Source: a virus
Taxonomy: Duplodnaviria > Caudoviricetes
Reading direction: 5' to 3' (one strand)
IMG/VR virus record: IMGVR_UViG_3300013426_000017
Location: 111,407-175,406 of that record
DNA length: 64,000 nt
How positions within the stretch are numbered: position 1 is the stretch's first letter; each line of letters begins with the position of its first letter. Below, piece by piece: positions 1-63,222 of this stretch. A program made the translations under genes and the position numbers. The notes beneath the pieces are model-generated. The model searched no databases and had not been told where the DNA came from. It saw nothing but the letters and a program-made list of their open reading frames with translations.

Positions 1-1772
1 ATGCGATTAGTCGATATGATGAGTTAATTGATTTAGCAATCTCATTAGGACATACTTGTATTGCGTTTACTGAACATGACTGTGTATCTAATGCCGTTAA
101 AATTCAAAAATATTATCGCAAGATAAAAGAAAAACATCCCGATTTTAAAGTAATATTAGGTAATGAGATTTATTTATGTCATGATGAGATGGATAAAGAA
201 CATTACAACAAGGGTGAAGATAAATTTTTTCATTTCATTCTATTGGCAAAAGATGCCATAGGCCATCAGCAAATTCGAGAAATTTCAACTCGAGCTTGGA
301 TGCGTTCATGGATGGATGGTAAAATGCGTCGTGTTCCAACTCATTATCAAGATTTGATAGATATTATTGGTAAAAATCCTGGCCATGTAATTGGTAGCAG
401 TGCTTGTCTTGGTGGCTTCTTGCCCACACTAATTCTTAAAGGGAAAGACAATCCTAATATAGATATTACACCAATAATTCATTCTTGGTTTGATAAAATA
501 TTGAGCATTTTTGGAAAAGACAATTTTTATTTTGAATTGCAACCTCCTGCAAAAAAGGATAATGAACAAGATTATGTAAATCAATATCTATATAATCTAT
601 CTAAAGATTATAATATTCCATTCATTATTACTACAGATACTCATTATCCTACAAAAGATGATGCATTTATACATAAAGCGTATTTAAATTCTCAGAATGG
701 TGAACGTGAGGTTGATAGTTTTTATGCAACTACTTATCTTATGGATACAGATGAAATAGAAAAGTATTTTTCAGTATCTAATATAGATGTATCATTAGCA
801 TATCAAACCATTCAAAAAATTGCAGATCAATGCGAAGACTATGATTTAACTCGTTCATTAAAAATTCCTCGTTTACGTTGGAAAAGTGCTCAATTTTCAT
901 ATCTAACATTTGAATCCAAATGGTATGATTTAATTCCAATGATTAAACATTTTATGGATTCAGATTATGATGGAGATAAACTATTAGTTAATTTATTAAT
1001 AGAAAAAATTCGTTCAGATGAACGTCTACAAAATCAAGCGACTTACGATGCTGTTAATACTTGTCTTCAAATGACATGGGAATCATCTGAGATTAATAAC
1101 ACTCATTGGTCAGCGTATTTCCTTAATCTGCAAAAAATTATTGATGTATGTTGGGAAGCCGGAACGTTGGTCGGTCCTGGTCGAGGTTCTGGCGTCGGCT
1201 TTATTTTGCTATACCTATTAGATATTACTCAGATCAACCCGCTATGGGAAACTACACGAACTTTTCCTTGGCGTTTCCTTAATCCTAGTCGTGTTTCTGT
1301 ATTGGACGTTGATGTTGATATCGAAGGGTCTAGACGTGGTGAGGTTTTGAGCAAGCTGCGCCAAGTATATGGACAAGATCGAGTAGCAAATGTTATTACA
1401 TTTGGTAGTGAAAAGAGTAAAAGCGCTATATTGACAGCCGCCAGAGGATTAGGTATTGATAGTGATGAAGCACAATATATTTCATCATTAATACCAGCAG
1501 ACCGTGGACAAATTAGAACATTATCACAATGTTATTATGGTGATAAAGATAATGATTTTAAACCAGTATCCCAATTTATTAGTGCCATGAATAATAATCC
1601 TGAGTTATGGCGCGTAGCACAAAAGATAGAAGGTTTAGTATGCCGCTCAGGTATTCATGCTGGTGGCGTTATCTTTGTAGATGAACCTTTTACCAATACT
1701 ACAGCTTTGATGCGGGCGCCTGACGGCACAATAATCACAGCTTACGATCTTCATGATGCGGAAGACTGTAGT
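1..1772 (+). CDS. dnaE: DNA polymerase III alpha subunit, exon 1 (5'-truncated by window edge)
   Basis: Frame is open from nt 3 (AISRYDELIDLAISLGHTCIAFTEHD, PHP domain). Motifs SSACLGG, TDTHY, GPGRGS, DVDVDIE, GIHAGG. Ends ...DAEDCS at the intron 5' splice site. Confidence 0.95.
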
Positions 1773-2998
1773 TGACGAAATGTTAGGCTACTAAATATCT
1801 AACTGTTTATCAGCAGCGTATTATAGGCAGCATTCTGCGTAAGTAAAAAATACCTATAATGCGTCGGGGAAGCCTAAGTCTATAAAAAGATATGGTAATC
1901 CCGAACCAAAATATTAAAGTAAGTGTTTAATTTATCTATATATGAAAGGTGGTGAAAAGACAATGTATGTTTATAAAATTACAAATAAAATTAATAATAA
2001 AATTTATATAGGAATTACAAATAATATTGAAAAACGTTGGGGAAATGAAAAAAGCTATCCTTCAGACCCAAAAAGACGACAAGTAATCCAAGAAGCGATA
2101 CATAAATATGGAGTAGAAAATTTCAAATTTGAAATATTAGAGCGCAATTTATCTATTGAGCAAGCAGTTGCCAAAGAAATGCATTTAATTCAAGAATTAA
2201 AATCGCTCGTTCCTAATGGATATAATATAGATTCTGGTGGTTATTATCATCCAAAATGTGCCCCTCAATATGGCGCTGATAATGGACACGCTAAATTAAC
2301 TCAAGAAGAAGCGCAATATATTTTAGATCACCGAGACCAACCCATTTATTTATTATATGATGAGTTCAGTGATAAAATTTCATACGAAGCTTTTTTAAAA
2401 ATTTATAATCATAAAACATATACTAATTTAACTACGTCAGTAGATATTTACCCTTATAATCGTGAATTTTCTGGTCAATTTACGAGTGGTCCATTAGATT
2501 ATGATGATATAGTAAAAATCAGAATTAGATATTCAGATGGAGAATATTGGCGCGATGTATATGAAGATTATAAATGGGCCTATGATAATGAGTGGACCTT
2601 TTGGAATGTATACTATGGTAATAGATATAAATTAGTAATGCCTGAAGTTTTTACTAAGGAAAATCGCCATAAACATGCGGGACGTAGCAAATCTGGAACT
2701 TTAAATGGCCGAGCTAAACTTATTGAATCAGATGTTCTTGCAATTCGAGAAAAATGGCAGAATGGCGCCACACGACAAGAATTATATCTTGAATATCCAC
2801 AAGTGTCTACTACTTCAATTTGTGATATTATTAATGGAAAAACCTGGAAACATTTACTTTAATATATGTGTGTATCGACTATCCCCGGTTAGACGGGGAG
2901 TAGAGCATCTATTGATACGATGTTCGAAACGGTATTCTTTTACAAATTATTGTAGAAGTAAGAGATAGTCAGGACATATAGAAATATATGACAAACTG
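1773..2998 (+). mobile_element. Group I intron in dnaE carrying a GIY-YIG homing endonuclease
   Basis: P1 GTAGT/GCTAC with U.G at the splice site. IGS TTAG pairs the 3' exon CTAA (P10). P7 GACTAT (2877)/ATAGTC (2965), terminal G at 2998. Removal restores EDCS-LIKYDLLSIEAL, the DnaE KxDxL motif. Confidence 0.93.
1963..2862 (+). CDS. Intron-encoded GIY-YIG homing endonuclease
   Basis: MYVYKITNKINNKIYIGIT...LVPNGYN. C-terminal repeated N..AKL...IR DNA-binding-type units. RBS AAAGGTGG precedes ATG 1963 (the track starts at 1942). Confidence 0.9.
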   Translation: MYVYKITNKINNKIYIGITNNIEKRWGNEKSYPSDPKRRQVIQEAIHKYGVENFKFEILERNLSIEQAVAKEMHLIQELKSLVPNGYNIDSGGYYHPKCAPQYGADNGHAKLTQEEAQYILDHRDQPIYLLYDEFSDKISYEAFLKIYNHKTYTNLTTSVDIYPYNREFSGQFTSGPLDYDDIVKIRIRYSDGEYWRDVYEDYKWAYDNEWTFWNVYYGNRYKLVMPEVFTKENRHKHAGRSKSGTLNGRAKLIESDVLAIREKWQNGATRQELYLEYPQVSTTSICDIINGKTWKHLL

Positions 2999-5086
2999 CT
3001 AATTAAGTACGATTTATTGAGCATTGAAGCGCTAGATAAAATGCATATTTGTCTAGATCTGTTACATGATTATAATTTGATACCAGATGGTACAATTAAA
3101 GAGCGATATGATAAAATTTTAAATATTTATACCATTAATCGTACCGATCAGAACATGTGGCATAAAGTATGGAATCATGAAATATTATCATTATTTCAGA
3201 TGGAGAAGCAGAGCGGTATTAAAGGTATCGCCACATTAAAGCCTACGTCAGTTGATGATTTATCAGTTTTAAATTCTACTATTCGACTTATGGCGCAAGA
3301 AGGCGTTGATGAAATGCCAACTGATAAATTAGCAAGATTTAAAGCTGACCCAAAAGCTTGGGATAGAGAATTAGCACAATGGGGTCTTGGCACCTTGGAA
3401 AAATCTATTCTTGAACCAATCCTGAAATCATCTTATGGTCTATGTATTACACAAGAGCAGTTCATGGAACTGGTTCAATTACCTGAACTAGGCGGCTTCT
3501 CATTAACCTGGGCAGACAAATTACGTAAATCAATCGCGAAGAAAAATCCAGCAGCATTTGATGCATTAACCGAAGAATTTTATGCTACCACAAAAGAAAA
3601 ACATATAAAAGAAAATTTCGCAAAATATGTGTGGCAAGTCCTAATTAGTATGTCGAAGGGATATGGATTTAATGCTTCTCATACGCTAGCCTATTCGCTC
3701 ATTGCGCTACAGGAAATGAATCTTGCAACAAGATTCCCAATTATTTATTGGAATTGTGCTTGTTTAATTAATGATAGTGGTACCGGTATAGATGATAATG
3801 ATGCATGCATTGATTATGATGAACTCGAAAATGAAAAGGATAAAGCAAATACTGATTACGAAAAACTAGCTCGTGGAATCGGCAAAATGAAAGACTTTGG
3901 AGTCCAAGTTAATTTGGTCGATATTAATAAATCTGGATTTACATTTGTTCCTGATGCTGAAACAAATACCATCTATTGCGGTTTGAAAAGTATGCTCAAT
4001 ATTAATGATGATATTGTAAATCAAATCATTGAGAATCGTCCTTATTCATCGCCTAAAGATTTCTACCAAAAGGTAAAGCCAAAGCGCCAAGCAATGATTT
4101 CATTAATCAAAGGTGGCGCATTTGATTCCATGATGGAACGTAGCGATTGTATGATTTGGTATATTTGGGAAACCTGTGATAGGAAAAGTCGTATTACATT
4201 GCAGAATATGCCAAGTTTAATTAAATATGATTTGCTACCAAAAGATACAGAAGAACGTAAAACTGCATTTCGAGTTTATGAATTTACAAAGTATTTAAAA
4301 GCGACATGTAAGAACAAGGCAAAGCCTGGTTATTATATTCTAGATACTAGAGCAATTAATTTTCTTGTTGAAATAAAATGCGATGATAAAATTGAAATGA
4401 AAGAGCAAGAGCTTGTATTAGACGAAAAAGTCTGGGATAAAATTTACCAAAAATGGATGGATGTTTATCGAGCTTGGATTAAGAGTAATCATGACCAAAT
4501 CTTGCAAGATTTAAACACTATTATATTCTATGAAGATTGGAAGAAGTACATTAAGAAGAATAATTATTCTGCTTGGGAAATGGAAGTGCTGTGTTTCTAT
4601 TATCATGCCCATGAATTACAAGATGCTAATGTGGCGAAGTATGGAATAAAAGATTTTTATAAATTACCAAAAAACCCGATAATTGAATATTCGTATCCAA
4701 TTAAAGATAGAATAATTAATATTTACCAATTAACCAAAATTTGCGGCACTTGTATTGCCAAGAATAAAAATAAATCTACTATATCATTACTTACGCCTAG
4801 CGGTGTTGTAGAAGTAAAATTTGCAAGAGATTTTTTCTCAATGTATGATAAGCAAATATCTCAGCGCCAAGAGGATGGAAAAAAGAAAATCATAGAGCGT
4901 AGTTTTTTCCAGCGCGGTAGCATGCTCATGATTACCGGTATACGTAGTGATGATATGTTTATTTGTAAGAAATATAAAAACACCCCTGGACACAGATTGT
5001 ATAAAATAGAAGAAGTGGCGCCAGATGGTGATTTAATATTAAGAAGTGAAAGATACAAAGGAGAAATGGAAGAAGATGGCATATAA
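2999..5086 (+). CDS. dnaE: DNA polymerase III alpha subunit, exon 2
   Basis: LFQME, CITQEQFM, ADKLRKSIAKK, YGFNASHTLAYS, DINKS, LIKGGAFD and a C-terminal OB-fold-like region. Confidence 0.95.
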   Translation, partial: LIKYDLLSIEALDKMHICLDLLHDYNLIPDGTIKERYDKILNIYTINRTDQNMWHKVWNHEILSLFQMEKQSGIKGIATLKPTSVDDLSVLNSTIRLMAQEGVDEMPTDKLARFKADPKAWDRELAQWGLGTLEKSILEPILKSSYGLCITQEQFMELVQLPELGGFSLTWADKLRKSIAKKNPAAFDALTEEFYATTKEKHIKENFAKYVWQVLISMSKGYGFNASHTLAYSLIALQEMNLATRFPIIYWNCACLINDSGTGIDDNDACIDYDELENEKDKANTDYEKLARGIGKMKDFGVQVNLVDINKSGFTFVPDAETNTIYCGLKSMLNINDDIVNQIIENRPYSSPKDFYQKVKPKRQAMISLIKGGAFDSMMERSDCMIWYIWETCDRKSRITLQNMPSLIKYDLLPKDTEERKTAFRVYEFTKYLKATCKNKAKPGYYILDTRAINFLVEIKCDDKIEMKEQELVLDEKVWDKIYQKWMDVYRAWIKSNHDQILQDLNTIIFYEDWKKYIKKNNYSAWEMEVLCFYYHAHELQDANVAKYGIKDFYKLPKNPIIEYSYPIKDRIINIYQLTKICGTCIAKNKNKSTISLLTPSGVVEVKFARDFFSMYDKQISQRQEDGKKKIIERSFFQRGSMLMITGIRSDDMFICKKYKNTPGHRLYKIEEVAPDGDLILRSERYKGEMEEDGI

Positions 5087-5687
5087 AATCTTGGCACTCA
5101 TGGGTGCTGCTGGTGTGGGCAAAAGCGCCGTGCTTCATGCACTCATGACCCAGGCGCCTCGCTTCCATGAAATTATTAGCTGCACTACTCGCCCTCCTAG
5201 AGAGGGTGAAGTAGATGGTATTAACTATCATTTTTTATCACATGATGATTTTGCTGAACAAATTAATCAAGGAAAAATGATGGAAGTGGCAATATTTCGT
5301 GGTTGGTGTTATGGCACCTCATTTGATAATTTGGCGCCAGATAATATAAATGTCGGCGTATTTAATCCGTCAGGTATTGCAATGCTAATGGATGATAGTA
5401 ATATAGATCTGTTTCCTGTTTGGATTCAGGCATCTGATAAAACTCGGCTATTACGCCAGTTGAATCGAGAGCACAATCCCGATGTAAAAGAAATCATTCG
5501 TCGATATTCTACTGATGAAGAAGATTTTAGCGATATAATAATAAAAGATGATCTAGGGTATAAAGCCTATTATGAATCATACCCTATTGCAATTATTAAC
5601 AATGAAAATCGCACACCAGAAGAAACAGCAATAGAAATTCTAAATCTTGTATCCGCTTGGACAAAATCAGATAATTTATCTATTTAA
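5076..5687 (+). CDS. gmk: Guanylate kinase
   Basis: P-loop GAAGVGKS, SCTTRPPREGEVDGINYHF, YGTS. ATG at 5076 overlaps the dnaE end. Confidence 0.92.
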   Translation: MAYKILALMGAAGVGKSAVLHALMTQAPRFHEIISCTTRPPREGEVDGINYHFLSHDDFAEQINQGKMMEVAIFRGWCYGTSFDNLAPDNINVGVFNPSGIAMLMDDSNIDLFPVWIQASDKTRLLRQLNREHNPDVKEIIRRYSTDEEDFSDIIIKDDLGYKAYYESYPIAIINNENRTPEETAIEILNLVSAWTKSDNLSI

Positions 5688-5702
5688 AAACCTATATATA
5701 GT
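5659..5702 (+). promoter_or_regulatory. Putative promoter with shared upstream motif (nrdD operon)
   Basis: GGACAA-N5-GATAAT-N21-TATAGT, one of nine similar copies. Confidence 0.55.
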
Positions 5703-5737
5703 GATATGAAATTTTAGAATAGAAAGGAGATAATTTT

Positions 5738-8700
5738 ATGACAGTTGAAAAACGAGATGGTTCATTAGTGCCATTTAGTAGTGATAAAATTATTAAAGCA
5801 ATTGAAAAAGCATTTCTTGAAGTAGATGGTGAAATCTATGAACATGACACAGCTAAGGATATTGCATACGAAATTGGTAAAGAATTAATGAATCAATTAT
5901 CGCCCATGTCTGTTGAAGATATACAAGATCGAGTAGAAGATTACTTGATGCGCTCTGAGAGACGAGATGTGGCGCGAGCCTATATTCGTTATAGATATAA
6001 AAAAGAAATGCTACGACAATCTAATACTACTGACCAGTCTATTAAGGAACTGCTGGATGGTAATAGCGATTATTGGAATAATGAAAATTCAAATAAAAAC
6101 GCAAAACGCACTACCGTTCAACGTGATTACATGGCTGGTATTGTAAGCACTGATATTACCCGTAGATTTCTATTAGATCAAGATATAGTAGATGCACATG
6201 ATGCAGGCATAATCCATTTCCACGATGCAGATTATTTCGCACAAAATGCAATTCATAACTGTTTTTCAAGAAATACTAAATTTATTACTAAAAAGGGCAT
6301 GTGCTCTTTTAATGATTTTAAAGATGGAGATACTATTGAAGTTCTGTCAATTGATGGGAAGTATCATAAAGCAAAAGTAAGACAATATGGCCTACAAACA
6401 CTTTATAAATATACTTTTTACAATGGGAAAAAAGAATATACCCATGATGTAATAGCAACAGAAAATCATCGGTGGATTCTAAAAGATGGAAAAGAAACAA
6501 CTTCTTTAAAAGAAGGAGATAAATTATGTAAAGCTCCCGCTATCTACTCACAAGAATTAGACTGGGACAAATTAACAGAAAATGAAAAGATGATGTGGTG
6601 TAAAGGCTTTGGAATGGGTGACGGAACTAAAGAATATAATACCAATTCTACTAAAATCCGGTTGTGCGGAGAAAAAGATTTACAATTTATAAAGCGTTTT
6701 TCTATACCAGGATGCAGTATTAGAAATACTTATTTTACTAATGGCGATAAAGAAGTCGTGATTTATAATTATAAAAAAACCATACCAGAATTTAATTCAA
6801 TTAAAGAATTACAATGCTTTATTAATGGCTTATATTGTGCCGACGGACGAAAGAAAAAAATGGCAAATGGTAAATATAATTTTGGCTTACAATCTTCTTC
6901 TTTAGAAATAATTGAATTTTTAAGAAAAATGGCTGGAACGGCTGGTTTATATATTACTAGAGAAAATGATCGCACTGGTGAGATAACTAATTTTACCTCA
7001 AAAGAAGGACGTCCTTACACAATTCTTTTTTCTTTTAATAATGATTTTTATTTTAATTATACCGTTTTGAAAAAAGAATATTATGGAGAAGATATTGTTT
7101 GGTGCCTTGAAGTTGAGGATACACACAATTTTATTCTTGAATATGGAATACCAACTGGAAACTGCGAATTAATTAATCTTGAAGATATGTTGCAGAATGG
7201 AACAGTTGTTAATGGCGTAATGATTGAAAAGCCTCATAGATTATTAACAGCAACAACTATAGCTACTCAAATTATTGCAGCTGTGACATCCTCATCCTAT
7301 GGCGGCGCCACAATTTCATTGACTCATCTTGCCCCATTTGTTCGAGATAGTTATTATTATTATTGCCAAAAATATAATAAACGTGGCTGTTCAGCAGTCG
7401 ATAGTTTAAAGTTCGCAAAAGAAGACTTGGCTAAAGAAATTTCTGACTCTGTGCAAACATTTAATTATCAAACCAATTCAATGACTAACACTAATGGTCA
7501 AGCGCCCTTTCTCTCAGTATTTATGTATCTCAATGAAACAGATGAATACAAAGACGAATTAGCTATGTTAATTGAAGAATTTTTGAAACAGCGAATTCAA
7601 GGATTTAAAAATGAAAAAGGCGTATATATTACACCAGCATTTCCTAAACTCCTCTATGTTCTTGAAGAAGATAACATCACATCTGATAGCAAGTATTGGT
7701 ATTTAACAGAATTAGCAGCCAAATGCACGGCTAAGCGTTTGGTGCCTGATTATATATCTGAAAAGATAATGAAACAACTCAAGGGTGGTGATGTATATCC
7801 ATGCATGGGTTGTAGAAGTTTTCTCACACCTGACCCTGTCGAGCATAAATACTATGGACGGTTGACTGCTTAGGGTTAAGCCGTCGTTAAATCGCGTGAA
7901 CATATGAAAAAATGGTGTGGGCAATATGCCTGCTAACGGTGAAACCCAAGGGCAATACCGTGCCAAGTCTTATTATAATTACTAAAATAAAGGAGTTTTT
8001 ATAATGAAAACTATATTTTTACAAAATAAAACATTTAAACAATTTAAAAAAACTAAATATTATTGTGATGATAATGGTACTATTTATTCCGATTACTCAC
8101 ATAAAATATTAAAACCTATGACTAAAGGTAAAGAAAAGCCTTATTATTATATTGATATAAATTTTGGTGAAGGACAAAAGCACTATCCTATTCATAAAAT
8201 TGTTTATGAAACATGGATTGGCCCAGTAGAAAATGGATTAAGTGTTTTACACAAAGATGATAATAGTTTAAATAATAATATAAATAATTTATATTTAGGA
8301 ACTCAAAAAGAAAATATTCAAGATTGTATTGAAAATAATCATAGAGTAGGAAATATTTGGATTTTAACAATTTTTGACAAAGAAAAAAAAGAAACTATTA
8401 CATTTTGTCCAGCTAAAAAATTTATTGAATATAGTGGCCACTCCAATAAAAGTGGATGTTTAAATAAGTTTTTCAATAAAAATTGGTTTAAGCAAAGATA
8501 TAAAATTATTGATTATTATAGATGTAAAAATTTAGTTGAAAAGAAAGGTGTAACGACTATGGATGATGAATGTAATCCAGTAGGGCAGAATTTATCACTG
8601 CTCGAAGCGCGCGACACTTGTTTAAATATAAGTGAAGAGATAGTCTAATTTTGTTAACCAAGGCGTAGTCACAATTAATTTGGCTGATGTAGCATTTAGC

Positions 8701-10553
8701 TCTCATGGTGATATGAATGAGTTTTGGCGTATTTATGATGAACGATTAGAATTATGCCATCGTGCATTGCAAGCACGTCATGATCGTTTATCTCACGCAA
8801 TAGCTGATGTATCTCCTATCCTGTGGCGTTATGGTGCTCTAGCTCGCTTACCTCAAGGCTCCAGCATACACGAATTACTACATCATAATTATTCTACCCT
8901 CTCTCTTGGCTATGCTGCATTATATGAATGCGTTAAATATATGACGGGTGAAAGTCACACTAAAGGTGGCAAAAAGTTTGGCCTAGCCGTTATGCAACAT
9001 TTGAATGATGTCTGTGCCAAATGGCGACAAGAAGAAGACATTAGCTATAGTGTTTATGGAACACCAATAGAGTCAACAACCTATAAATTTGCTAAATGCT
9101 TGAAAAAGCGTTTTGGTGATGATATTTTTATTAAGCTAGATGGAAAAGATAGAAGCTACATAACCAATAGTTACCATGTCCCAGTATTTGAAGAAATAGA
9201 TGCATTTACAAAACTTGCATTAGAGTCTGAATTTCAAGAGTTAAGTCCAGGTGGTTAAATTTCAATATAACTTAAAATAGCCACCTTGAAACTGTGTGAA
9301 CGTAAGAAAAAACGGTGTTTAGATTATATAAATCTAAGCTAACGGGGGACACTTAATTGGAAATCCCGTGCCAAGCTTTATTATTTTATTTAATAAAGAA
9401 GGTGTACAGACTAATTGTACTGATGATTTTATCACATCAGGAAGCGCACAGCTAATGAAGCGGAGGTATCCCGCTATTAGAAGATATAGTCGAAAGGAAA
9501 AAATATGTATAATTGTGAAATTTGTGGAAGAACAGTAAATAAAAAAATCCGTTTAGGCGGATACACTTTATGCTCGAAGCATATGCATCAGCTATACTCT
9601 CATGGAAAATTCTTAGATAATTGTCCTAGAACCCAAAATGATTTAAATGAATATAGAATAGAATCGGACGTTGTTTATGGCGGACTATATGATGGTGTCA
9701 CCTCAGAAAAAATTGATGAATTTATAATTGACTCTGAAGATTTACCAAAAGTGAAATATCATAAATGGAGATTTAGCCATGGACACATAGTAACAGGTTT
9801 ACCCGCACAAAAGACCCAGCGAGAATTAAGTTGGGTTGTTTTGGGGCTTGATAATCGTGTTGAGAAAGATATTGTTATAGACCATATAAACTGTAACCCC
9901 AAAGACAATCGCAAACAAAATTTAAGAATTTGTACACAAAGTGAAAACACTCGAAACAAATCTTTTATGAGTAATAACACCTCTAATTTTATCGGAGTAT
10001 CATACCGAAAAGATAGAGATAGATACGATCCTGAAATTAGAAAAAGCTCTATTCGTTGTCATTTAGGATATACCAAAACACTTGAAGAGGCAGTTTATAA
10101 AAGATATTATGCAGAGCAACTTGTTTTCGGAGAATTTGCAAATCAAGCCGAACAGGATAAAAAACAAAAATTTACCGAAAATCTTCCAATAGAAACTAAA
10201 GAGCAATTACAAACTATTGTTAAAGAAAAATTACAAGCAAAAAACCTTTGGCAATAAGTTATATTGAGACTTCTAACTTACAAAATAATATCGAGGCAGT
10301 AGAAGAAGTTATGAAATTTATTTATGACCATATCATGTATGCTGAGCTCAATACCAAAAGCGATTATTGTCAAGAGTGTGGATATGATGGCGAAATTCTA
10401 ATTGATAATAATATGGAATGGTATTGCCCCAATTGCGGAAATAGAAACCATGAAACCTTGAATGTGGCGCGACGCACCTGTGGCTACATCGGTTCTCAAT
10501 TCTGGAACTATGGTCGCACAGAAGAAATAAAAGATAGGGTTCTTCATTTATGA
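5738..10553 (+). CDS. nrdD: Anaerobic ribonucleoside-triphosphate reductase; join(5738..7862,8654..9255,10251..10553), 1009 aa precursor, 708 aa after intein removal
   Basis: ATP cone (VEKRDG), IHFHDADY, HN-CELINL, GQAPF, FPKL, MGCRS, YGR-FNQGVVTINL, YITNSYH, PGG-AISY, CxxC..CxxC and the glycyl-radical motif RRTCGYIG. Confidence 0.95.
6260..7162 (+). mobile_element. Intein (301 aa) with LAGLIDADG endonuclease domain in NrdD
   Basis: Starts CFSRNTKFIT. Block B ATENHRW, LAGLIDADG-like KGFGMGDG and FINGLYCADG. Ends VWCLEVEDTHNFILEYGIPTGN followed by +1 Cys. Confidence 0.92.
7863..8653 (+). mobile_element. Group I intron 1 in nrdD with HNH endonuclease
   Basis: P1 GACGGT/GCCGTC. IGS GGTTAA pairs the 3' exon TTAACC. 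P7 GACTAT (8555)/ATAGTC (8640), terminal G 8653. Splicing restores YYGR-F-NQGVV. Confidence 0.92.
8004..8648 (+). CDS. Intron-encoded HNH homing endonuclease
   Basis: IHKIVYETW..VLHKDDNSLNNNINNLYLGTQKEN (HNH_3-type). Confidence 0.88.
   Translation: MKTIFLQNKTFKQFKKTKYYCDDNGTIYSDYSHKILKPMTKGKEKPYYYIDINFGEGQKHYPIHKIVYETWIGPVENGLSVLHKDDNSLNNNINNLYLGTQKENIQDCIENNHRVGNIWILTIFDKEKKETITFCPAKKFIEYSGHSNKSGCLNKFFNKNWFKQRYKIIDYYRCKNLVEKKGVTTMDDECNPVGQNLSLLEARDTCLNISEEIV
9256..10250 (+). mobile_element. Group I intron 2 in nrdD with HNH-AP2 endonuclease
   Basis: P1 AGGTGGT/GCCACCT. P7 GACTA (9409)/TAGTC (9487) within AAGATATAGTC, terminal G 10250. Splicing restores ELSPGG-AISYIE. Confidence 0.92.
9505..10257 (+). 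CDS. Intron-encoded HNH endonuclease with AP2-like C-terminal domain
   Basis: IDHINCNPKDNRKQNLRICTQSEN, then NTSNFIGVSY..HLGY..LEEA (AP2-like). N-terminal CxxC..CxxH. Confidence 0.88.
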   Translation: MYNCEICGRTVNKKIRLGGYTLCSKHMHQLYSHGKFLDNCPRTQNDLNEYRIESDVVYGGLYDGVTSEKIDEFIIDSEDLPKVKYHKWRFSHGHIVTGLPAQKTQRELSWVVLGLDNRVEKDIVIDHINCNPKDNRKQNLRICTQSENTRNKSFMSNNTSNFIGVSYRKDRDRYDPEIRKSSIRCHLGYTKTLEEAVYKRYYAEQLVFGEFANQAEQDKKQKFTENLPIETKEQLQTIVKEKLQAKNLWQ

Positions 10554-11062
10554 AATATGCAGGAATTGTAAAAAATGATACAGCGAATGCTCCAGGCGTC
10601 TGCGTATCATTCTACGCTCAAGGATGCGACCACCGGTGCTCGGGGTGTCATAACCCTGAGACTTGGGATTTCGAAGGCGGTAAGGAATTTACTCCCGATG
10701 TGTTAAAACAAATAGATAAAGCATTAGTCGCCAATGGCGTGCATCGTGATTTTTGTCTATTGGGCGGCGAACCACTACACGAGAAGAATTTAATGCTATC
10801 ATACCTATTAATTGAGCATATTCGCCAAATACATCCCGATGTAAAAATATATATTTGGTCTGGTTATTTATATGAAGATTTACTCGAAACAGCAAAAACC
10901 AACCATAAATTAAGATTCATATTAGATAATTCAGATTATTTAATAGATGGGCCATTTATCCTCGCAAAAAGGGATATAACCTTGTGGATGAGGGGCTCTC
11001 CCAATCAACGCATTTGGGATTTAAAAAATAAAAAAGAGATAAAGGAGAAAAATGAATTATGA
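10550..11062 (+). CDS. nrdG: Anaerobic RNR activating protein (radical SAM)
   Basis: QGCDHRCSGCHNPETWDF, LLGGEP, DGPF, RGSPNQR. ATGA overlap with nrdD. Confidence 0.95.
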   Translation: MKYAGIVKNDTANAPGVCVSFYAQGCDHRCSGCHNPETWDFEGGKEFTPDVLKQIDKALVANGVHRDFCLLGGEPLHEKNLMLSYLLIEHIRQIHPDVKIYIWSGYLYEDLLETAKTNHKLRFILDNSDYLIDGPFILAKRDITLWMRGSPNQRIWDLKNKKEIKEKNEL

Positions 11063-13165: not shown

Positions 13166-13190
13166 CGTAGAATAAAAAATATGATACAAT
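13162..13190 (+). promoter_or_regulatory. SigmaA/sigma70-type promoter
   Basis: TTGACG-17-TACAAT with extended -10 TG, upstream of 13214. Confidence 0.75.
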
Positions 13191-13213
13191 AAAATAAAAA
13201 AAGAGGTAAAGTA

Positions 13214-13723: not shown

Positions 13724-13728
13724 ATAAA

Positions 13729-16233: not shown

Positions 16234-16234
16234 C

Positions 16235-52400: not shown

Positions 52401-53688
52401 CAGAATGCAAATCATCAGGCAAATTAATATCATCAATCGTAGCCTCTCGGTTACGCCGATACCAACGAATAAATAGATTTCGTGCTTGGCGACCCTCGGT
52501 TGTAGAGGTATCAAAGCTAGGCAATGAGGTCAAATATTCAGGCTTGGCTTCGGTGTTAATCAACAGACTAAATCCAATTTGCGGAACCTCGATAGACAAC
52601 TCACGTAATACAGTGTTCGTCGCCATACCCTTCCATTCAGCTTCGCGCACATCGCCAGCAACAATTTGTTTTATAATTTCATTTTCTTCGAGCCACAAAT
52701 TAATTCTTGTTTTTTGTACTGAGGTAAAATTAATAAATTCGTCCTCTAATACATTATTTACACTTTCTTCTGTTGGATTTTCAATAGAACAAATATTATG
52801 TAATAATGTATCAAATTGCGCATTTAACTCGGCGTCACCATCTTTTTGATAGACTGTGCTGCCACTATTAGCCTTAATAGTAAATTTAGAATCTAACACT
52901 TCACTAGTTAGCTTACCAACGCCGACATACAAATCAGTTAGAATAATGTTGCTAGTCTGCACCACTGCTACTAATCTATCATTTTCATTATAGAAATCAG
53001 CATCTTGATACACATAAGCTTCGATACGAGTAACAGTAGTCTGAGTAGTTAATGTAAATACTTGGTTAACCCTTGTGCTATAAATGTAATTGTATGGATT
53101 ACCATAATATTCACTACATGGAAAATCATACTCGGTAATGGCACCTACATTATTCATGACTCGCAATTTAAGGCCGTAGGTTCCTTCCACTACACCAAGA
53201 GCTTTGAGTATCGTAACAAAACTACCTTCAATACCAATCTTAGTCACGCCAGAGTATTCGCCAGTCCATGAGCCAAGATAAGCAACTAGCTACTCATCAT
53301 TCGCAATTAAACCAACATCGCCATGCAATTTAATTAATGAATCATTTCGCCCATTAAAAAATACCACATCGGCGAAATTATCCGCTAGCTCATAGGCATC
53401 ATCACCTGTCTAACGCATACCTAAAATAATTTTATCGCCATCATTTTGGGCATTTGGCATTTGCACATAGACCAAATCACCCACTTTGTATTGTGTTTTA
53501 TTTAATGAATAAGCAGTAAATGATGAATAGCCACTACTAACCAAGTAGGCACCAGTGGCACTATCAATAATCTCCGCCACGACGCAATCTTTTGTAATCG
53601 TGGTTTCAGTACGATCAACTACACTCTAGGCAACTATTTCCATTGCCTGTAAGGTGTTTTCACTAATTTGACCTGCATTACTACTCAT
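49417..53688 (-). CDS. Large tail protein following tape measure (1423 aa, multiple TAG)
   Basis: ATG 53688 after RBS AAGGAG. Six in-frame track fragments. Ends at TAA 49417. Confidence 0.7.
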
Positions 53689-53717
53689 TTATCATCACTC
53701 CTTTTTCTCATTACTCT

Positions 53718-53762
53718 ATTATATCATAAAATTTGGGCCAAGTCAATTAATCAGTCTAGACC
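53718..53762 (-). promoter_or_regulatory. SigmaA promoter with shared upstream motif
   Basis: GGTCTA-N5-ATTAAT overlapping TTGACT-17-TATAAT (extended -10 TG). Confidence 0.7.
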
Positions 53763-53797
53763 AAATAAAAATAGGGGAACCACTTAAGGTTCCCCTA
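53763..53797 (-). terminator. Intrinsic terminator after tape measure gene
   Basis: TAGGGGAACC-loop-GGTTCCCCTA with a T-tail on the minus strand. Confidence 0.85.
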
Positions 53798-53804
53798 GAT
53801 AAGA

Positions 53805-56800
53805 TTATTTGCGATTTGCATACTGTGATGCTAAGTTAACTATATTCTCAAATGCCTGTTCAATTTCATTGTGGTCGACTGCGTTCGGGAACGAAGCCTC
53901 AATGTGAACATTCTACTCAAGAATTTCAGTTGCTGTGGCGGCGCTGGCCGGTATGAGTTCCCTAAGCGCAGACCATACGGACGCTTGATCGAGCCGCGCC
54001 ATCAAATCATGCAGTAATGTAATCGTAGTTAACAGATTACTTGTATCATTCTTATTTAGCACCAGTTCTTTCTCATGAAGTAATGCCCAACGGCCCTCGT
54101 TGCCCCAAGAGCCAGTATAGCCACCAGTGTCGTATTGAGATGCGGTTGCCAAGATACGACGCTTCTACTCAGCCGACATTTCATTGGGATCTTTTGCATA
54201 CTAATTAATTTTTTCTTGTAGCTATGCCTCGGACCAAGCTACAGCTTTTAAACTAGCATCATTATGAACTTTATAGGCTCGATATTCAGCATAGAGCCCC
54301 GCATCATCATAATTACCAGCCTGCAGTGCTTTTTCCATTTCGGTGCCCCAGTCAGTTTTCTTGATATAAGGCGTTTTAGCGGTTGATAATATTGCATCAC
54401 GCTCATCTTGACTCATTGGATTATTTTTATCCTGTTTTTCATCAATGATTTGATTCATTTTATCTTTATCCCAGTCGTATTCGCCATAAGCGTCAGGATT
54501 AGAATCAATCTTTTGGCGCCGCGCCTTGGCGTAGCGTTCTGCCATCTCGTAGTCACCATTAGCAAGGGCGGAATAGAATAATAAACTCATATCTTCGCCA
54601 CTGAGTCGCGCCAAATAAACCATGAGCTCCTCGATCATATCTCTAAAATCTTCGCTCATTTCTCGAATAGCCTTCGCCACTTCGTTAAAATTATTTGTTG
54701 CGTTTGTAGTAGCCTCATTTAATGATTTTTGTGTATTACTCATGTATTCCACCCATGCTTTCTAGGCTTCTTCATAGCTATTAATCTATTTGCCAGTAAT
54801 GTCGCTAACCATTTGGGTAAATGCATCTTGATACTTTTGAGTCTCACTAATCATCTATCCGGTCATTTCAATACTTGCATGACCAAATGTCTCCATAACC
54901 TCTTGCAGTGACTTAGTATTTGTGGCCTGGCCTAGGATGGTTTCTTCATAGGCTAACCCACTCGCTTCTAACGCTTGAGCATAGGTCTGATAATAATAAT
55001 CCAATTGCTTCTAATACAGACTTGTGAGCTCTTCGGCGCGCTTCTGTTTTTGCTCATCACTCAAGTCACTGGATTGTAATTCTGTCATCGCGTCAATGTA
55101 ATCATTCTGTAGCGATAGAATCTTTTCGCCCGCATCTTTGAGCGTATCCTCTTGTAACTCTTGTAATGCGTATTGCTTATCCTCTAACTCTTGCTCAGCT
55201 TTATCGACTTCCTCAGTATTAGCGGTATACATGTAGCCCCAACGACCTTCGTTATCACGAGTTAGACGCACCTCACTCTTGGCGTTACGTGCATCTTCAA
55301 GCGCGATCTCCGCCAAACGCAATTCATACTGGGCTTGCAAGTTCTTTAATTCGTACTCACTCATCTTAACATTATCAGCATAATAGCCATTAATGTCTTT
55401 CATTAGATCGCGTAACTTAGTCTTGGCGACTACGCTATCAAGCTTATTAATATCAGCTTGAATATTACGATTGAGCTTGTTGAGTTCATAGACTTTACGA
55501 GTATTACTCAGATACAACTCACTGAGGTCAGTCAAGTCGCCATACTTATCAATTGCCCATTCAAGGCCCTCATACAAGGCGTCTTTAGTCTTTTGGCCAA
55601 TCAATTCAAGATTCTCGACCCACTGATCTTTGATAGCATTGAGATAGTCACTTGCTAATGAAATTAATTCCATTTGTTTCTCATGAACTTGTTGATCAAT
55701 TTCATCAATCTAGTCTTGCAACTTCTCACTATAGGCTAATGCACTATCTTCCATAATGGTGAGGTCGCCAACGTTTTCAAGCTTGCGTATATCGGCAACA
55801 ATACCATCAATTAAATGGCCCTGCTCATCAACGCTCTTACCCAAGGAACTACGAGATTTATCCAACTCTTCTCTACGAGCCTTGAGCAAGTCAATCTCGC
55901 TCTAAATGCCCTTAGCTTCTGCCTAATAGGTCTTCCTAATACTATCATTCATGGCGCGATTATCTTCGACAGTCGCCACACCAAGTAATGAATACATATC
56001 CTTGATAGTCTCTAATGAGTCTCTATAATCACGAATCCTATCTTGGTAGTTCTCTAACTAATCGAATAGGTTGTTATATCTATCACTTATACTATCTATT
56101 TCATCGTTATACAACTCATAGATATTATCTTCCATCTCACCCAAGGCTTTTTTATAGTCTCGTAACTTCTGAATTTGCTCATCAGTGATTTCAAGACCTT
56201 TGGCTTTTTGCTCATTAATCTGAGCTTCAATACCTCTAATAGCTTCAGCATAGATAGCATACTAACTCCAATAAGACATAATCTTCTCTTGATTAATTGC
56301 AAATACTTCTAAGCTTGCTTTCTCTACCTCAGACAAGCGAGTCAAGCGACGCTCAAGGTAATCGAGTTTATCCTCTTCAATCTCAACCTTGTATTCAACC
56401 TTATAGGTAATCTTTTCCAATTTGGCAGATACAATCTCGTATTGCTTATCTAATAGATTACCAGCTTCCTCGAGTTTGAGAGCTAGGGTTTCTTCGTATT
56501 GGTCAAGAGTTTCTTTAAATGTGTTATAGGCCTCTTCTGCTTCATCGGTGAGTGATGCATTGAATATATCTAATTGCTTCTGCATGAGAGCGTCGTAGTT
56601 AGTGATAATACCATTAGCATCAAATACTGCGCCATATTTAGCGATTGCTTGGCGATCCTGCTGATAGTAGCGGTTAATCTCGTCGAGATAGCGCTTCTAT
56701 ATTGCTTCTTGTTCTTGAAGCTTGGCGATTTCATTATCAATAGCTTTGAGTTTGTCAGGACCATAAGCACGATCTTTTGCGGCAGATAACTAATCATATT

Positions 56801-59800
56801 CAGAAGATAGGCGATTGAGTTGCTGCTTAACAACATGGTAGCGTTCTATTTCATCGGAAGCTTTCTTTTTGTCTTTCTTAGAACCGCCGCCACCACCACC
56901 GGACGAAGAAGACGACAGATTTCCAGTTGAACCTTTCCCAGTAAAAGTGGCATTAGCAATGATTTTTCCACCACCGGATTTAATTGCAGACTACTAATCT
57001 TTGGTTAAATTACCGATAATAGGAATCCTAATAACGTCTGCGCCTATAGCTTTTAGATCATTTTTAGTAGTAATTGTCTTTTTATCATAGCCACCATCAT
57101 CATTAGGCACTAAAACCTCTTGTTCTTGGCTACCAATAAATGCTGAGGCCTAATCAGTAGGTATTTCTACATAACTTACATCAGGCGTAAAACCAATACC
57201 ACTTAAAATGGCATTCATATCATCAACAGTTATTTGCCCATCAGCCAATAGCTACTCTAAAACGCCTTTAAAACCAGAGTCATCGAGTGTGGCGCCGACC
57301 TCTAAATCGGGCATAAGCTCAATTAAATTGTATAAACCCTATAATTGAATTGGTAATTCGTCTACAGAAGAAGCTCCCTTGATATCTAAAACGACTTGTT
57401 TAGCAGCTAACTTCTATAGTCGTTTATATGCTTCTTCATCACCCTCTAGGGCTGCTTGAATAGTTTCAAAATTTTCTATTAAAAAATCATCACTAAACTA
57501 AATACCAAATAATTCTTTTAAGCTTTTCTTAAAACTATTAACCTTTTTCTAAGCCTCTAAACTTTTATCCAAGCCTTTGGCCCAATCACTTAAAACCTAT
57601 TTATTATTTTTAAACTCCTCTGACGCAGTATCTAAGGCCACTTGAGCCTTTAACTAACTTTCAACTAAATCTAACGCTGCCTTTTGATTATTGGCATATG
57701 CTTTATTATTCGCCATAATGGCAGCTGTTTGCTCTTCAATATACCCAGTTGTAACGCCATATTCATCAGATAGATCATTAGTTTTTTGATTAATACTATC
57801 CTAATACGCCCGTTCGCCCTAATCGGAATTACGATAATTTATTCCTTCTTGAACACGTTCAGGAATAAAAGCCTTGGTCTATTTTATAGCGTCAGCAAAA
57901 GCGTCAGCAACCTCTGTAGATAAACCTGTAAAATCCCATTCACCAGTATCTGCATAATGCTATAAAATATTATCTCTATCTTCATCTGAGATATTGACAT
58001 TATTATCGGCTAAATTTGCACGAACTTGCTAATAAGCAGCAAGCTACTTCCCTACAGCTTCTTCGGTGGCCTATCCTACATTATATTTGGCCAAGTACTC
58101 TGCCATCTCATCAGCGGTAATTTTAAAACCATCATTCCAATTACCAGCAGCGTCCTAGGTGCGTAATACCCAATCACCATCTTCGTTTTTCTCAATTGTC
58201 TAGGTCTCTGGATCATAACCAGCTTTTTCAAAATAATCTTCTGCAATTGCCTTATCTGTATAATTTTTCTCAATGCGCTCCTGCTCTTTATCTATATCTT
58301 CTTGAGTTATTTGTCCTGCTCGAATACTAGCCGCTAATTGCTAGTCAGCATCACTCAAACTATTATAATAATCATTATCAGAATTTATGCCGTCAGCAGA
58401 GGTTTTAAACCAGGCCCGCAGCGCTGCAGTATTCGCCTATAATGCAGTCACATTATCTGAAACAGCATCAAACTGACTATCCAATGCATTAAGCATACCA
58501 TCAGAAATATCAGCCAATCCATCAATAGACCGCACTGCTTTTGCAAATGCTTGATCATCATTCTATGCTTGTGCGGCTTGAATTTCTGCCCAGGTTTTTT
58601 TATCGGCTTTCGCCAACTCTTTTATGACTTCGACTTCATCTTTTGAAGCCATTCCACCATTATCAGCAATAGTTAATCCAGTACCTATAACTCCTAAAAC
58701 ACTACCTATAAGAGCGCCGCCCAAAGCTCCAACAACATTACCCAGAACTGGAACTATTGAACCTAATGCGGCTCCTGCTAATGCACCAGCCATAGCACCT
58801 CCTACAGCGCCTTCAGCCATATAATTTGCGGTAGGAGCAATATCTGATGCAGTATGCATCTTTCCAGCCGTAGTTTCAATATCGACATCTGTTTGTGCTG
58901 CTGCAGCATTTAATTTTGCCGATTGTGCTACGGTCTATTGTTGTAATAGCCGTTTAGATTCTTCTTGCCGCGCAACTAAAACAGAATCTTCATCTAATTC
59001 AATGAGTCCATCTGTGCCTATTGTATATTTTATTCCATCATAATTATTAATTAATTGCAAAGCTGCTTCATTAGCTTCTCGCACGGCATCAGTATATTCA
59101 ATGGTGCCCTCAGTTAATTCTTTTAAATTATCTTTAGCGGTATTATAATTATCCCAAGCCGTGGTTAATTCATTATAAGCTGTTTTTGCTTCATTATATG
59201 CATTTGCTAAACTAGTAGCATTTTCCTATGCAGCTTCTGCCGCATCCTAAGTCGCATTCATCGCATCTTTTAGCATTTTAGAAACCTAAACAGCTATTGC
59301 AATAGCCGCTGCAATTAATATGAAGGCTTTATATTTTGAAATAACTGCACCTAAACGCTGCATGGCAGCGGTCAAAACATCTGTAGCCGTTGCTTCTTGC
59401 AATTTCGCTGCTGCATCTTTATAATGGGCAAATGTATCGTCATCTGTAATTTTAATACCTGTTAATTTTTGAATGTTTTGTATTGCTTCTTCTCGACTTA
59501 ATTGCCCTGTCGCTTCTTTTTCAAAAATAACAGCTAATGCATTTTTATTTTTAACAACCGCGGCTGCTTCATTCATAGAAACTGACATTGCTTGCGCCGC
59601 TGCTTCTGCCTCAACAGCAAATTTTAAATCAGTGTATATAGTCTTTACAGAATTTAAAATAGGTAAAAAGCTACCTAAAACCATACTAGCGCTCATTAAA
59701 ATTGATGTAAATTTATCCCAGGCTGATAGGTCTGGATTTGAAATTGTATCAATAGCAGATTTAAAACTACTTATTCCCATGGTTAACGAAGAAGCTAAAT

Positions 59801-62591
59801 TGACAGCATTTTGCACCTTCTGCAACGCGGTTAATGTATGTGTAAATCTCTTTAATGCCGTATCTTGTATTTCTGCTGCCGCACTAGCAGCTTCTAAGGC
59901 CTTTTTTAAAGCCTATTCAGCACTTCCTGTTTTAATCAACTCATTTCGAAAAACTTCTAAATCTTTCGTGCTTAAATTGAACTACTTAGCCAATTTTTCT
60001 TCTAAACCACGAATCCGCTCTAAATTATCTTCAGTAGCCTATTGAAAACCCGAAGAAATTATATTACCCTTCTTATCACGACTGCCTTCGCTTAGCATTT
60101 CTATTAAAGCTGGTAAATCGTCATTAAATTCACTAGGATCATCTAAGGATAAACCGTCTAAAGTCTTTTGTAAAGCGGTGGTTTTAACTCCAGCTTCTCC
60201 TAATAAATCTATTAATCCCTATAATTCATTCTTTAAAACATTCCAACTATCAGAATCTAAAGTCTCACCGGAAATATCTGGCACTCGTGCAAGAATAGCT
60301 TGTAATTGTTCCGAACCCGTATCTAATTTACCCTATAATTTAGAATAATTTTCTAAACCACCCTATCCATTAATACCATAAATTAAATCATTATAATAAC
60401 GTGCCTAACCTAAATCCTCCGTAGAATAAGATTGAATTCGTTTAAAAATCTTCTATAATTCTTTATTTTTACCTGTTCTTTTTCCATTTAAAAATTTACT
60501 AATATCATTTTCGCTAATTGAAGAACCACCTAACTCCTGAATAAGTGAAGTAATTTCTGTTTTCTCTGTATCAAAACTTGTAGAATTATTACCCCATATC
60601 GCTTTTATCCAATCCTGCGACCATTCTTCTTTGGACATTTTTAACCAATTACTAGTTAACTAACCAACACCCTCAAATTGTGTAACTTTATCTTTTCTTA
60701 CATTTGAAGATAAATATAAACTACGTTCCGCAATCTTGGCCTACTAATTACCCGCGTCAACCTATTTTGCCATATTTTCAACCATTTCAGCTTCAACACG
60801 AGCTTGGTCAATTAACAAACTTAACTGCTAAGATTCTTGTGCAGTTAATTTATCTGCATTATTTAAACGATATTGCTATAATTTATTAATCTAAGCATAA
60901 ACATCAACGACCCCAGTACCAGTAGCATTACCCTGAGCCTAATACATAGATTGCAAATTAGACATTGCTTGCTCACGCAACTATTGGTCAGCCTCGTTAC
61001 GCGCTTGACGAACACTAGGAATTAAACCGCCAATATTATAAGCGGCCGTAGAAATACCTGCAGCAATCTTATCCCCCCAGAGTTTGTTCATCAATAGAAT
61101 TAAACCAGGCAACAATCCTGCTAATCCGCCCATTGAATCAATGATTTTATCAATTAAACCAACTACATCAGATAATGCATCCGTTAACCAAATAAAGAAA
61201 TCATCCTTCAGCAAATCATCATATAAAGTTTCCATAGATGCTTGCAAACGATTTCTTGCAGCTTCCCAAGACTCTTCATAAATCTTCTGCTGTTCATCAA
61301 GAGTACCTTCTGCGCCATAAGCAGTCGCCAAGTTCTCGCCCATGAAGTCCCAGTTATCCATTAACGCAACGAATTGCGTATACTGACGAACACCTGCAAC
61401 CGTCTGCGCCAATGCAATCTACTGGTCCTTACCGATAGTATCCCACTTAGAACCAATCTCATCTAGAATTTCATCCATGTCTTTCAGTTGGCCCGCTTCA
61501 TCCTTAATATTGACACCAACAGCTTCAAGAGCAGATGAATATTTATTCAAAGTAGTGCCATCATCTAGCGTCTCACCCAGATTCAAACCTTCAATACGAG
61601 CAAATAAGGTCTTTAATGCGGTACCAACAACATCAGCACTTTGGCGAGTCTTTGCAGTAATCGTAGTGAGTGCCGCAGTTGCATATTCATAACTTAATCC
61701 AACAGTATCAGCAACTGCTGCAAACTTTTCCAAGCCATCAGCAATCTCGTCAGTGCTAGATGCCGTGGCGGCGCCAAGTGCTGTCATTACATCGGCATAG
61801 TATTCAGCAGCATGTTCGCCATTTTTCATAAAGTTTTCCCATACTGCGGTCATTTGCTGCGATACGGTCTGTGCAGTCGTACCAGTAACATTCGCCATCT
61901 TGATGGTAGTATCAGTACGTTCCTTAACAGCCTTATCATCCAAGCCTTGCTGGTAATAAATCAAACTAGCATCAGTATAATCAAGTGTAGTAGCACTTAA
62001 CTCTTTCGCCGCTTTATTCGCTTGCTTGGCGAAGTCCGCCATACGATCTGCACTATAGCCAGTAACAATACGAATATCATTAAGAGACTTATTTAAATCC
62101 TTAGCATAATTATAGGCATCAGATAACCCACTCTACAGACCATGCATAATATTCGATGAAATCTGCCAGCCTGCTGTACGCTTTAAGGTATCCCATAATT
62201 TATCTAGTAGCCCCAAAGAACGAGTAAGTGGCGACTCTGATGCTACAATAGCCTTCGCTAAATCTGCAAACGCCGCCTGGCCACTCGGGCCTATCTAAAC
62301 CAATGCAGTACGATACTTCTCTAAACTCATTCCTGACTTCTGCATTTCCCTGTTGAATTTGGTTAAGTCAAGACTATTAGTATTAACATTAAGTGCGTTC
62401 TATAAATTCTGGCGCAGCTTGATTGCTGCTTCGGATGCCTAATTTAATTCGTTAGACAATTTATAGCCGCCCAAATCTAAATTCTATTGATTGGTTATAT
62501 TTCGTAATGATGATTGTAGTTTATTCAGAGCCTACTCGGCCGAAGAAGTCTCCGCAGTAAAATTCAATCTAACTTCAACAGTTCTACTCAT
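53805..62591 (-). CDS. Tail tape measure protein (2928 aa, many TAG)
   Basis: N-terminal TP901-type TMP domain (L..IRIVTG, YYQQG, VGTALKTLFARI, G...KDMDEIL, AGVRQ), TM-like segments, long coiled coils, C-terminal DTGGYTG..ALLHEKELVL. All large in-frame fragments join via TAG. Confidence 0.9.
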
Positions 62592-62627
62592 TACTCAATT
62601 CTCCTTTCTCTCGCTTTTATTTTTGCG

Positions 62628-62670
62628 CAAAAATAAAATAAGTCCGTCGAAAAATAATCGACGGACTATT
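62628..62670 (-). terminator. Intrinsic terminator-like hairpin before the tape measure gene
   Basis: AGTCCGTCGA-loop-TCGACGGACT followed on the minus strand by TATTTTATTTTT. Confidence 0.75.
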
Positions 62671-62703
62671 TCTCTATTTTATTTAAAAATTAAAATAGAT
62701 AGA

Positions 62704-63222
62704 TTAACCTAATTTATCCAAGACATCCTTTACCATAGTCAAACTTTCCGGCGCCAGATTAATATCCTTTACGATATCCTCTAACTCCAAATTCGACTCC
62801 TTAGCGTCGGCCATTAAGCCCTTCAAGATGCCACGTGCCGAGTTCTTATACTCATAAATTGAATGAATAAATTCCTCAACGCCACGGACTATGAAAGAAT
62901 AATCAGGACTTTCAGACACAATTGGAATAATAGCTTGGAAAACTCCATTGGAAAAAATGTCATACAAATCAAATATGCTAGCATTTTCATCCACTTTAAT
63001 ATCTGTGTATGCCAATACTAATTTTACAAGTAAATTAATTTTACCTAAACAAGGGTTATAGAAATCATTATCATCAATAGATGCATTAACAATATCACTT
63101 ATCAATTCCATTTTTTCCAATATGGGAATATTTTTCTTAACAGTAACTTGAGTATTGCCAATTGGAACAAGATCGGTAGAAGTATCAATACCTTCTATAC
63201 CCAATTCATTTATATTAATCAT
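62704..63222 (-). CDS. Hypothetical protein (position typical of tail assembly chaperone)
   Basis: 172-aa TAG-free ORF immediately upstream of the TMP. RBS AAAGGAG. Confidence 0.65.
   Translation of the reverse strand: MININELGIEGIDTSTDLVPIGNTQVTVKKNIPILEKMELISDIVNASIDDNDFYNPCLGKINLLVKLVLAYTDIKVDENASIFDLYDIFSNGVFQAIIPIVSESPDYSFIVRGVEEFIHSIYEYKNSARGILKGLMADAKESNLELEDIVKDINLAPESLTMVKDVLDKLG

Follow-up and report, generated by a model that had tools for sequence, protein, structure and literature searches.

A short asymmetric word, CGCCA/TGGCG, is enriched throughout the genome of a TAG-recoded gut phage, with CCGCA/TGCGG in its place among more distant relatives

Which sequence is over-represented, and what keeps it so, in an AT-rich phage genome strewn with the palindrome GGCGCC? 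The question is raised by the final 64 kb (the window, 64,000 nucleotides, positions 111,407 to 175,406) of IMG/VR record IMGVR_UViG_3300013426_000017, an uncultured gut phage genome of 175,406 bp (hereafter G0) with a GC content of 37.4% (36.8% in the window) and an estimated completeness of 96%. The initial annotation of this window had noticed the excess of GGCGCC and had likened it to the highly iterated palindrome HIP1 of cyanobacteria, with methylation-directed repair as its possible cause and a protein-binding signal as one of the fallbacks. We have found that the enriched core is the asymmetric pentamer CGCCA, which reads TGGCG on the other strand, that GGCGCC is secondary to it, and that a sister lineage enriches another word. 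Our preferred explanation, with a probability of roughly 45%, is a selected recognition word for a sequence-reading protein of DNA transactions, probably phage-encoded.

Reading TAG as sense raised the coding density of G0 from 75% to 87%, joined fragments and lengthened the open reading frames (ORFs), the longest of them to 2,929 codons, and all codon-based tests were therefore run on TAG-sense ORFs. The weak null used in these tests shuffles synonymous codons inside each gene, so that the protein sequence and per-gene codon usage are kept; the strict null keeps, in addition, all dinucleotides and the base following each codon. Relatives were collected by a polymerase search of IMG/VR, which delivered 20 loci, and six genomes (G0 to G5) were compared in full. 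The closest relative is G1 (174 kb; 76% of G0 aligned at 84% nucleotide identity). TAG behaves as a sense codon in G1 to G4 as well, and G5 uses the standard code.

The enriched core is the pentamer CGCCA/TGGCG

The exact count of GGCGCC in the window is 33, against 2.4 expected at order 0, which bears out the excess first noticed; all 31 positions listed at that time are correct, and the copies at 43566 and 54515 had been overlooked. Related words are present in 35 (GTGGCG), 40 (CGCCAC), 10 (GTGGCGCC) and 5 (GGCGCCAC) copies in the window, and in the whole of G0 the hexamer GGCGCC (112 copies) is the commonest of those composed of G and C only. Markov models of order 1, 2, 3 and 4 predict 5.0, 9.4, 28 and 35 copies in the window; since 28 of the 33 are already predicted at order 3, the tetramers within the hexamer suffice to account for it. 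Control for amino-acid sequence and codon usage does not abolish the excess: it survives both the weak null (86 observed, 26.9 expected, z 12) and the strict one, genome-wide (91 against 44, z 8) and in the genes of the window (32 against 15.1, z 5.6).

An unbiased ranking of k-mers against the shuffled sequences placed CGCCA, TGGCG, GCGCCA, CGCCAC, CGCCACA and GCGCCACA at the top. The palindrome itself, which had been taken for the signal, is enriched solely as TGGCGCC or GGCGCCA. A 5' T or a 3' A flanks 29 of the 33 GGCGCC sites of the window, and the nine flank classes with neither letter show no enrichment (9 copies, 8.6 expected). Independently enriched half-words would give 26.9 copies of the overlap palindrome TGGCGCCA, and 24 are present. 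The dependence on flanks, together with a TGGCGCCA count that behaves as if the half-words were independent, makes GGCGCC a by-product of asymmetric CGCCA/TGGCG.

The specificity of the core is sharp. Among the words NGCCA and CGCCN, CGCCA alone stands out as enriched (2.15-fold), with CGCCG at 1.33 and the other six at 0.76-1.12, and the 15 single-mismatch neighbours of CGCCA range from 0.56 to 1.41; all five letters are required. The best extension is G-CGCCA-C-A, and with soft flanks the pattern becomes c-g-G-CGCCA-C-a. When words containing CGCC, GGCG or GCGC were set aside, no second over-represented word exceeded z 6 under the strict null. Several GC-rich words, namely GGCC, CCGG and CGCG, are depleted in G0.

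On the coding strand, genome-wide, the weak null predicts 89 CGCCA and 257 TGGCG, where 262 and 507 are found, and each word is enriched in all three coding-strand frames (ratios 1.4-3.7 and z 5-19 over the six classes); iteration of the motif regardless of frame, on both strands and beyond codon usage, as initially described, is thus confirmed. Under the strict null, CGCCA/TGGCG amounts to 768 against 498 expected in G0 (ratio 1.54, z 22), CGCCAC to 229 against 99 and CGCCACA to 112 against 35; the genes of the window give 269 against 177 (z 10.3), 74 against 28.3 (z 10) and 35 against 9.8 (z 12.6), respectively. Excess copies are distributed alike on both strands (GCGCCA +91 and TGGCGC +96; CGCCAC +72 and GTGGCG +73), and in the 23 kb without called ORFs 75 CGCCA/TGGCG sites are seen where 21 are expected. 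With both strands counted, a site is met approximately every 208 bp of the genome, every 5-kb bin contains the word, and no bias in its position within genes was found.

The proteome is affected too. In G0 and G1 only, the peptides GAT (2.8-fold), WR (1.8-2.2-fold) and VA (1.3-fold) are more frequent than composition predicts; in G2 and G3 only, this applies to the dipeptide AA (1.4-fold). The word is therefore strong enough to shift the peptide content of the proteome. This effect, together with enrichment in every frame, on either strand and within unannotated DNA, places the pressure on DNA and not on translation. The extended word GGCGCCACA (GGC GCC ACA, Gly-Ala-Thr) has 10 copies in the window, where 0.13 would be expected, and all 10 are on the coding strand of their region (Table 1).

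Two smaller observations concern individual words. The sequence AACCGCTA is found in 10 copies against 1.4 expected, on the coding strand only. One GGCGCC resides in the 17-nt spacer of a near-consensus promoter (TTGACA and TACAAT) outside the window, which indicates that the word is tolerated within regulatory DNA.

Conservation of the word and its switch among relatives

Sites of the word are conserved between G0 and G1 above the background of GC-rich words (median 32-36%): 52% for CGCCA, 62% for CGCCAC and 72% for GCGCCAC. Compared with GGY elsewhere, the synonymous C in T-GGC-G is lost less often and more often regained, and GGC is conserved at 63% inside the word context and at 46% outside it. 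CCCGGGC/GCCCGGG, at 89% (n=19), is the most conserved of the GC-rich heptamers between G0 and G1.

The enrichment is restricted to one lineage of the family. Under the strict null, the ratio for CGCCA is 1.54 in G0 (z 22) and 1.45 in G1 (z 26), and 0.97-1.06 in G2 to G5; the latter values also validate the null itself. The relatives lacking the word have polymerases 68-69% identical to that of G0 and an equal GC content. The longer GGCGCCAC behaves in the same way, with 56 copies in G1, whereas four relatives comparable in size and GC content have 7, 7, 3 and 2. What G2 to G5 enrich is CCGCA/TGCGG, with ratios of 1.38-1.79 (z 7-20) against 1.11 in G0 and 1.01 in G1. The family has thus undergone a switch of word, with CGCCA/TGGCG in the G0/G1 lineage and CCGCA/TGCGG in G2 to G5. 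The two words are equally GC-rich and share the form C..CA, that is, four G/C letters followed by A. A polar coupling of the word to CCAANAG is clear for TGCGG in G3 (1.75) and G4 (1.41).

Avoided words differ among these genomes as well. GTAC is strongly avoided in G0 and G1 only (95 against 219 under the strict null), and GATC is avoided in all relatives, to which G3 adds TCGA and CTAG, G5 adds TCGA, and G4 adds TGCA, CTGCA and AGCGG (43 against 126).

A mosaic segment of the window, which comprises parts of nrdD and two downstream genes (Table 1), encodes proteins with 94-96% identity to those of G2 and only 23-57% to those of the otherwise much closer G1. Its bin has the lowest word density of the genome, and mosaic segments contain the longest stretches devoid of the word; the protein identities suggest recent exchange with a lineage of the CCGCA type. 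Genes poorly conserved in G1 carry 3.3 sites per kb against 6.0, with observed/expected values of 2.1 against 2.25, and we make no claim of word-free imported DNA from this difference. In a check for compensatory turnover between the two genomes, sites found only in G0 or only in G1 are about twice as close to one another as background, and the same is true of shared sites and of control words.

No mention of GTGGCGC/GCGCCAC as a word of phages came up in a search of the literature. To our knowledge the CGCCA word, the secondary status of GGCGCC and the CGCCA/CCGCA switch are new, as we found no publication that describes them.

What might maintain or read the word

The explanation that needs no reader attributes the excess to context-dependent mutation, codon-pair bias or local GC heterogeneity. 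The performance of the order-3 Markov model would be in line with it, as would the somewhat clustered sites and a per-site conservation raised only moderately (63% against 46%), as expected of weak forces. We regard it as very improbable, because the excess outlives a null that preserves dinucleotides and codon-plus-next-base tetramers, is equal in size on both strands and present in all frames, requires all five positions and shifts amino-acid sequences; moreover, GGCC, CCGG and CGCG are depleted, and the same test gives ratios around 1 in four relatives of equal GC. The drive proposed at the outset, in which the word would be marked by a methyltransferase and then multiplied, as for HIP1, through methyl-directed mismatch repair or a methyl-reading function, appears very improbable. 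HIP1 (GCGATCGC) and the alternate HIPs do resemble the present case in being short GC-rich words spread genome-wide over coding and non-coding DNA beyond codon usage, replaced by another word in some lineages, and the alternate HIPs of cyanobacteria co-occur with a methylase specific for the same sequence (Elhai 2015, PMC4390886). CGCCA includes one A, and an EcoRI-family adenine methylase (PF13651) is present, among the six genomes, in G0 and G1 alone. However, HIPs are palindromic and have cognate methylases, whereas the core in G0 is asymmetric and the sole methylase does not track it: the same enzyme, at 89% identity, is encoded by a relative of 165 kb whose genome has only 15 GCGCCAC (123-145 in G0/G1), four other carriers of PF13651 have 2-5, and G2 to G5 enrich CCGCA without a PF13651, PF01555 or PF00145 methylase. 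As to C5 methylation with Vsr-type repair, G0 lacks PF00145 and PF03852, along with PF01555 (N6_N4 methylase); PF00145 and PF01555 are absent from the five relatives; and the deamination-type transition neighbours of CGCCA are not depleted (TGCCA 0.96, CACCA 1.10, CGTCA 0.82, CGCTA 1.09).

The main rival is a Chi-like signal of the host. CGCCA/TGGCG (or GTGGCGC) would tame the host AddAB or RecBCD and would have accumulated to protect and recombine the linear phage DNA, with the change from TGCGG to CGCCA reflecting a shift to hosts of another clade, whose Chi differs. Chi words are likewise short, asymmetric, GC-rich and taxon-specific (AGCGG in B. subtilis, GAAGCGG, GCGCGTG, and GCTGGTGG in E. 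coli), and the Chi of Pseudomonas syringae, GCTGGCGC, contains TGGCGC (PMC5959072). Over-representation of Chi by 2.3-4.8-fold in phages without RecBCD inhibitors (PMC3784561) is similar to the 2.2-fold in G0, where the word is over-represented given composition, and the lineage that has the new word is also the one in which avoidance of GTAC arose, which fits a change of host. Still, we consider this explanation unlikely: the word has no polarity or orientation bias beyond the codon-usage effect, and G0 encodes recombination genes of its own, its replication and recombination set comprising DnaB, primase, a RecJ-like nuclease, a Dda/RecD-like helicase, Sak4, gyrase and ligase. In addition, relatives with differing restriction-avoidance profiles have the sister word CCGCA in common. 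In the metagenome-assembled genome (MAG) that holds G3, the 175-kb phage contig accounts for about 72 of the 88 GCCGCAA and the remaining 3 Mb for about 16, which is weak evidence because binning is no proof of host and the MAG is more AT-rich. The contigs binned with G3 share its depletion of GATC, TCGA and CTAG, and CCGCA is mildly raised in a 109-kb sample of this MAG, a small sample biased by the choice of contigs. It is also doubtful, and slightly more so, that the word is the target of some other DNA transaction, such as sequence-specific base hypermodification, phosphorothioation or binding by a phage protein that coats or condenses the genome. Its double-strand symmetry, uniform distribution and phage specificity would agree with such a role, and many genes restricted to G0/G1 have no assigned function, one of them encoding a winged-helix protein with weak similarity to ScpB; yet no modification genes were recognised in G0, and the sites show neither a preferred spacing nor helical phasing.

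A recognition word selected for a sequence-reading protein remains our preferred explanation. We infer selection, and not mutational drive, from the sharp specificity, the conservation above background and the clean exchange between CGCCA and CCGCA, and the fallback of a protein-binding signal, offered initially for GGCGCC, is viable for the pentamer. A phage-encoded reader is favoured because CCGCA persists across relatives whose restriction-avoidance profiles are quite different; phage specificity and family-wide persistence with one clean switch fit such a reader. It would read CGCCA along its own genome, where the word could serve as start sites of replication for the phage primase-helicase or, alternatively, could control a helicase-nuclease, as a 'phage Chi' or a self-mark. 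The more specific proposal, that TAG-recoded gut phages carry a phage-encoded system for reading a private five-letter word, and that reader and genome switched together from CCGCA to CGCCA, is possible and we put it forward tentatively.

Primases offer one possible model. The T7 gp4 primase recognises 5'-(G/T)(G/T)GTC-3' and DnaG primases recognise trinucleotides. Sites of this kind are, like CGCCA, of about pentamer size, are read on single strands in either orientation, belong to a phage-encoded enzyme and can change with it, although the spacing of the word in G0 is uneven; we know of no report of primase sites enriched genome-wide in such a manner. The uptake sequences of Pasteurellaceae and Neisseriaceae (uptake signal sequences, USS; DNA uptake sequences, DUS) are similarly selected words that distort codon and peptide usage and form lineage 'dialects', but they have 9-12 nt and a frequency of about 1 per kb, and serve bacterial competence, which has no obvious meaning for a phage.

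Several results weigh against a phage-encoded reader of this sort. A single strand shows enrichment of the word in both orientations, and the sites cluster instead of being evenly spaced (coefficient of variation of gaps 1.25, against 1.00 for random placement); a simple priming signal of the lagging strand would predict neither. CGCCA is coupled only weakly to CCAANAG (1.21 and 1.26), without orientation specificity. Comparison of gene content between G0/G1 and the relatives gave no reader candidate that tracks the switch. Finally, the reader may be encoded by the host, in which case a single host shift would explain both the avoidance of GTAC and the word.

Individual candidates were also considered. 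A nucleotidyltransferase and two small unknown proteins, absent from G0/G1, were among the core genes screened, and no reader is named from them. GyrB is divergent, but identity between the G0 and G1 proteins is as low as 36%, and since these two genomes do not share a GyrB it cannot explain their shared word. A cluster for 7-deazaguanine or other modification was sought in the G0/G1-only block at 46.6-49.9 kb, which gave a phosphoesterase match only.

Behind each of several genome-wide selected words (Chi, uptake sequences, the FtsK-orienting polar sequences KOPS, HIP1, for example) a machine that handles DNA has come to light. In G0, CGCCA costs synonymous freedom and even choices of amino acid, and the annotation offers no explanation for this. 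Since sister lineages with equal GC content and largely orthologous genes have different words, any reader must differ between them, which makes the question testable. If the tentative proposal of a private word with a phage-encoded reading system is true, viruses would carry a genome-wide recognition code of a new kind, and comparative genomics could use the switch from CCGCA to CGCCA as a handle for finding the reader. Words of this kind furthermore distort k-mer-based host prediction and binning, and create apparent 'palindrome' excesses that may be misread as methylation signals.

Coordinates and neighbouring genes

Table 1 Positions of the word, its extended form and other features (window coordinates unless marked as genome)
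Feature	Position	Strand	Remark
CGCCA/TGGCG field	1..64000		+ strand reads 179 CGCCA and 100 TGGCG; ~1 site/230 bp
GGCGCCACA	2764..2772	+	coding strand, Gly-Ala-Thr codons
GGCGCCACA	7304..7312	+	inside nrdD, preceded by GGC; GGC GGC GCC ACA, peptide GGAT
GGCGCCACA	13076..13084	+	GGC GGC GCC ACA form
GGCGCCACA	13463..13471	+	TGTGGC directly upstream, two words overlapping
GGCGCCACA	27732..27740	- (coding)	plus strand reads TGTGGCGCC
GGCGCCACA	39681..39689	- (coding)	
GGCGCCACA	43362..43370	- (coding)	
GGCGCCACA	45145..45153	- (coding)	
GGCGCCACA	46992..47000	- (coding)	
GGCGCCACA	57288..57296	- (coding)	
GGCGCC without 5' T or 3' A	1715..1720; also 5153, 12047, 43566		class not enriched
DnaE-type polymerase	189-5086		split by GIY-YIG homing-endonuclease gene at 1942-2862
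Mosaic segment	5738-10553 (genome 117144-121959)		parts of nrdD and two downstream genes
TAG-sense ORFs	14775-64000, genome-wide		2,929 aa with 65 TAG; 2,635 aa with 25 TAG
Mtd_N proteins (two)	genome 55175-58087		outside window
EcoRI-family adenine methylase (PF13651) beside GmrSD_N (DUF262)-HNH nuclease	genome 70646-73062		outside window
GyrB	genome 88387-90276		outside window
DnaB-like helicase	genome 102437-103729		
Primase	genome 104494-105603		
GGCGCC in promoter spacer	genome 28696-28730		outside window

A megablast search of the window against GenBank phages produced no match. The split DnaE-type polymerase of G0 has ~36% identity to the enzymes of SPbeta-like and Enterococcus phages. 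The primase is orthologous throughout G0 to G3, with identities of 97%, 57% and 50%. The gyrase B gene appears to have been replaced repeatedly, G2 to G4 sharing a different GyrB at 62-69% identity.

The adenine methylase adjoins a nuclease of GmrSD_N (DUF262)-HNH type. Of the six genomes compared, G0 and G1 alone have this pair, and homologues exist in other IMG/VR phages; a role of the pair in restriction or exclusion, as a module carried by the phage, is conceivable. The Mtd_N domain (major tropism determinant) in two proteins outside the window hints at a possible target of a diversity-generating retroelement.

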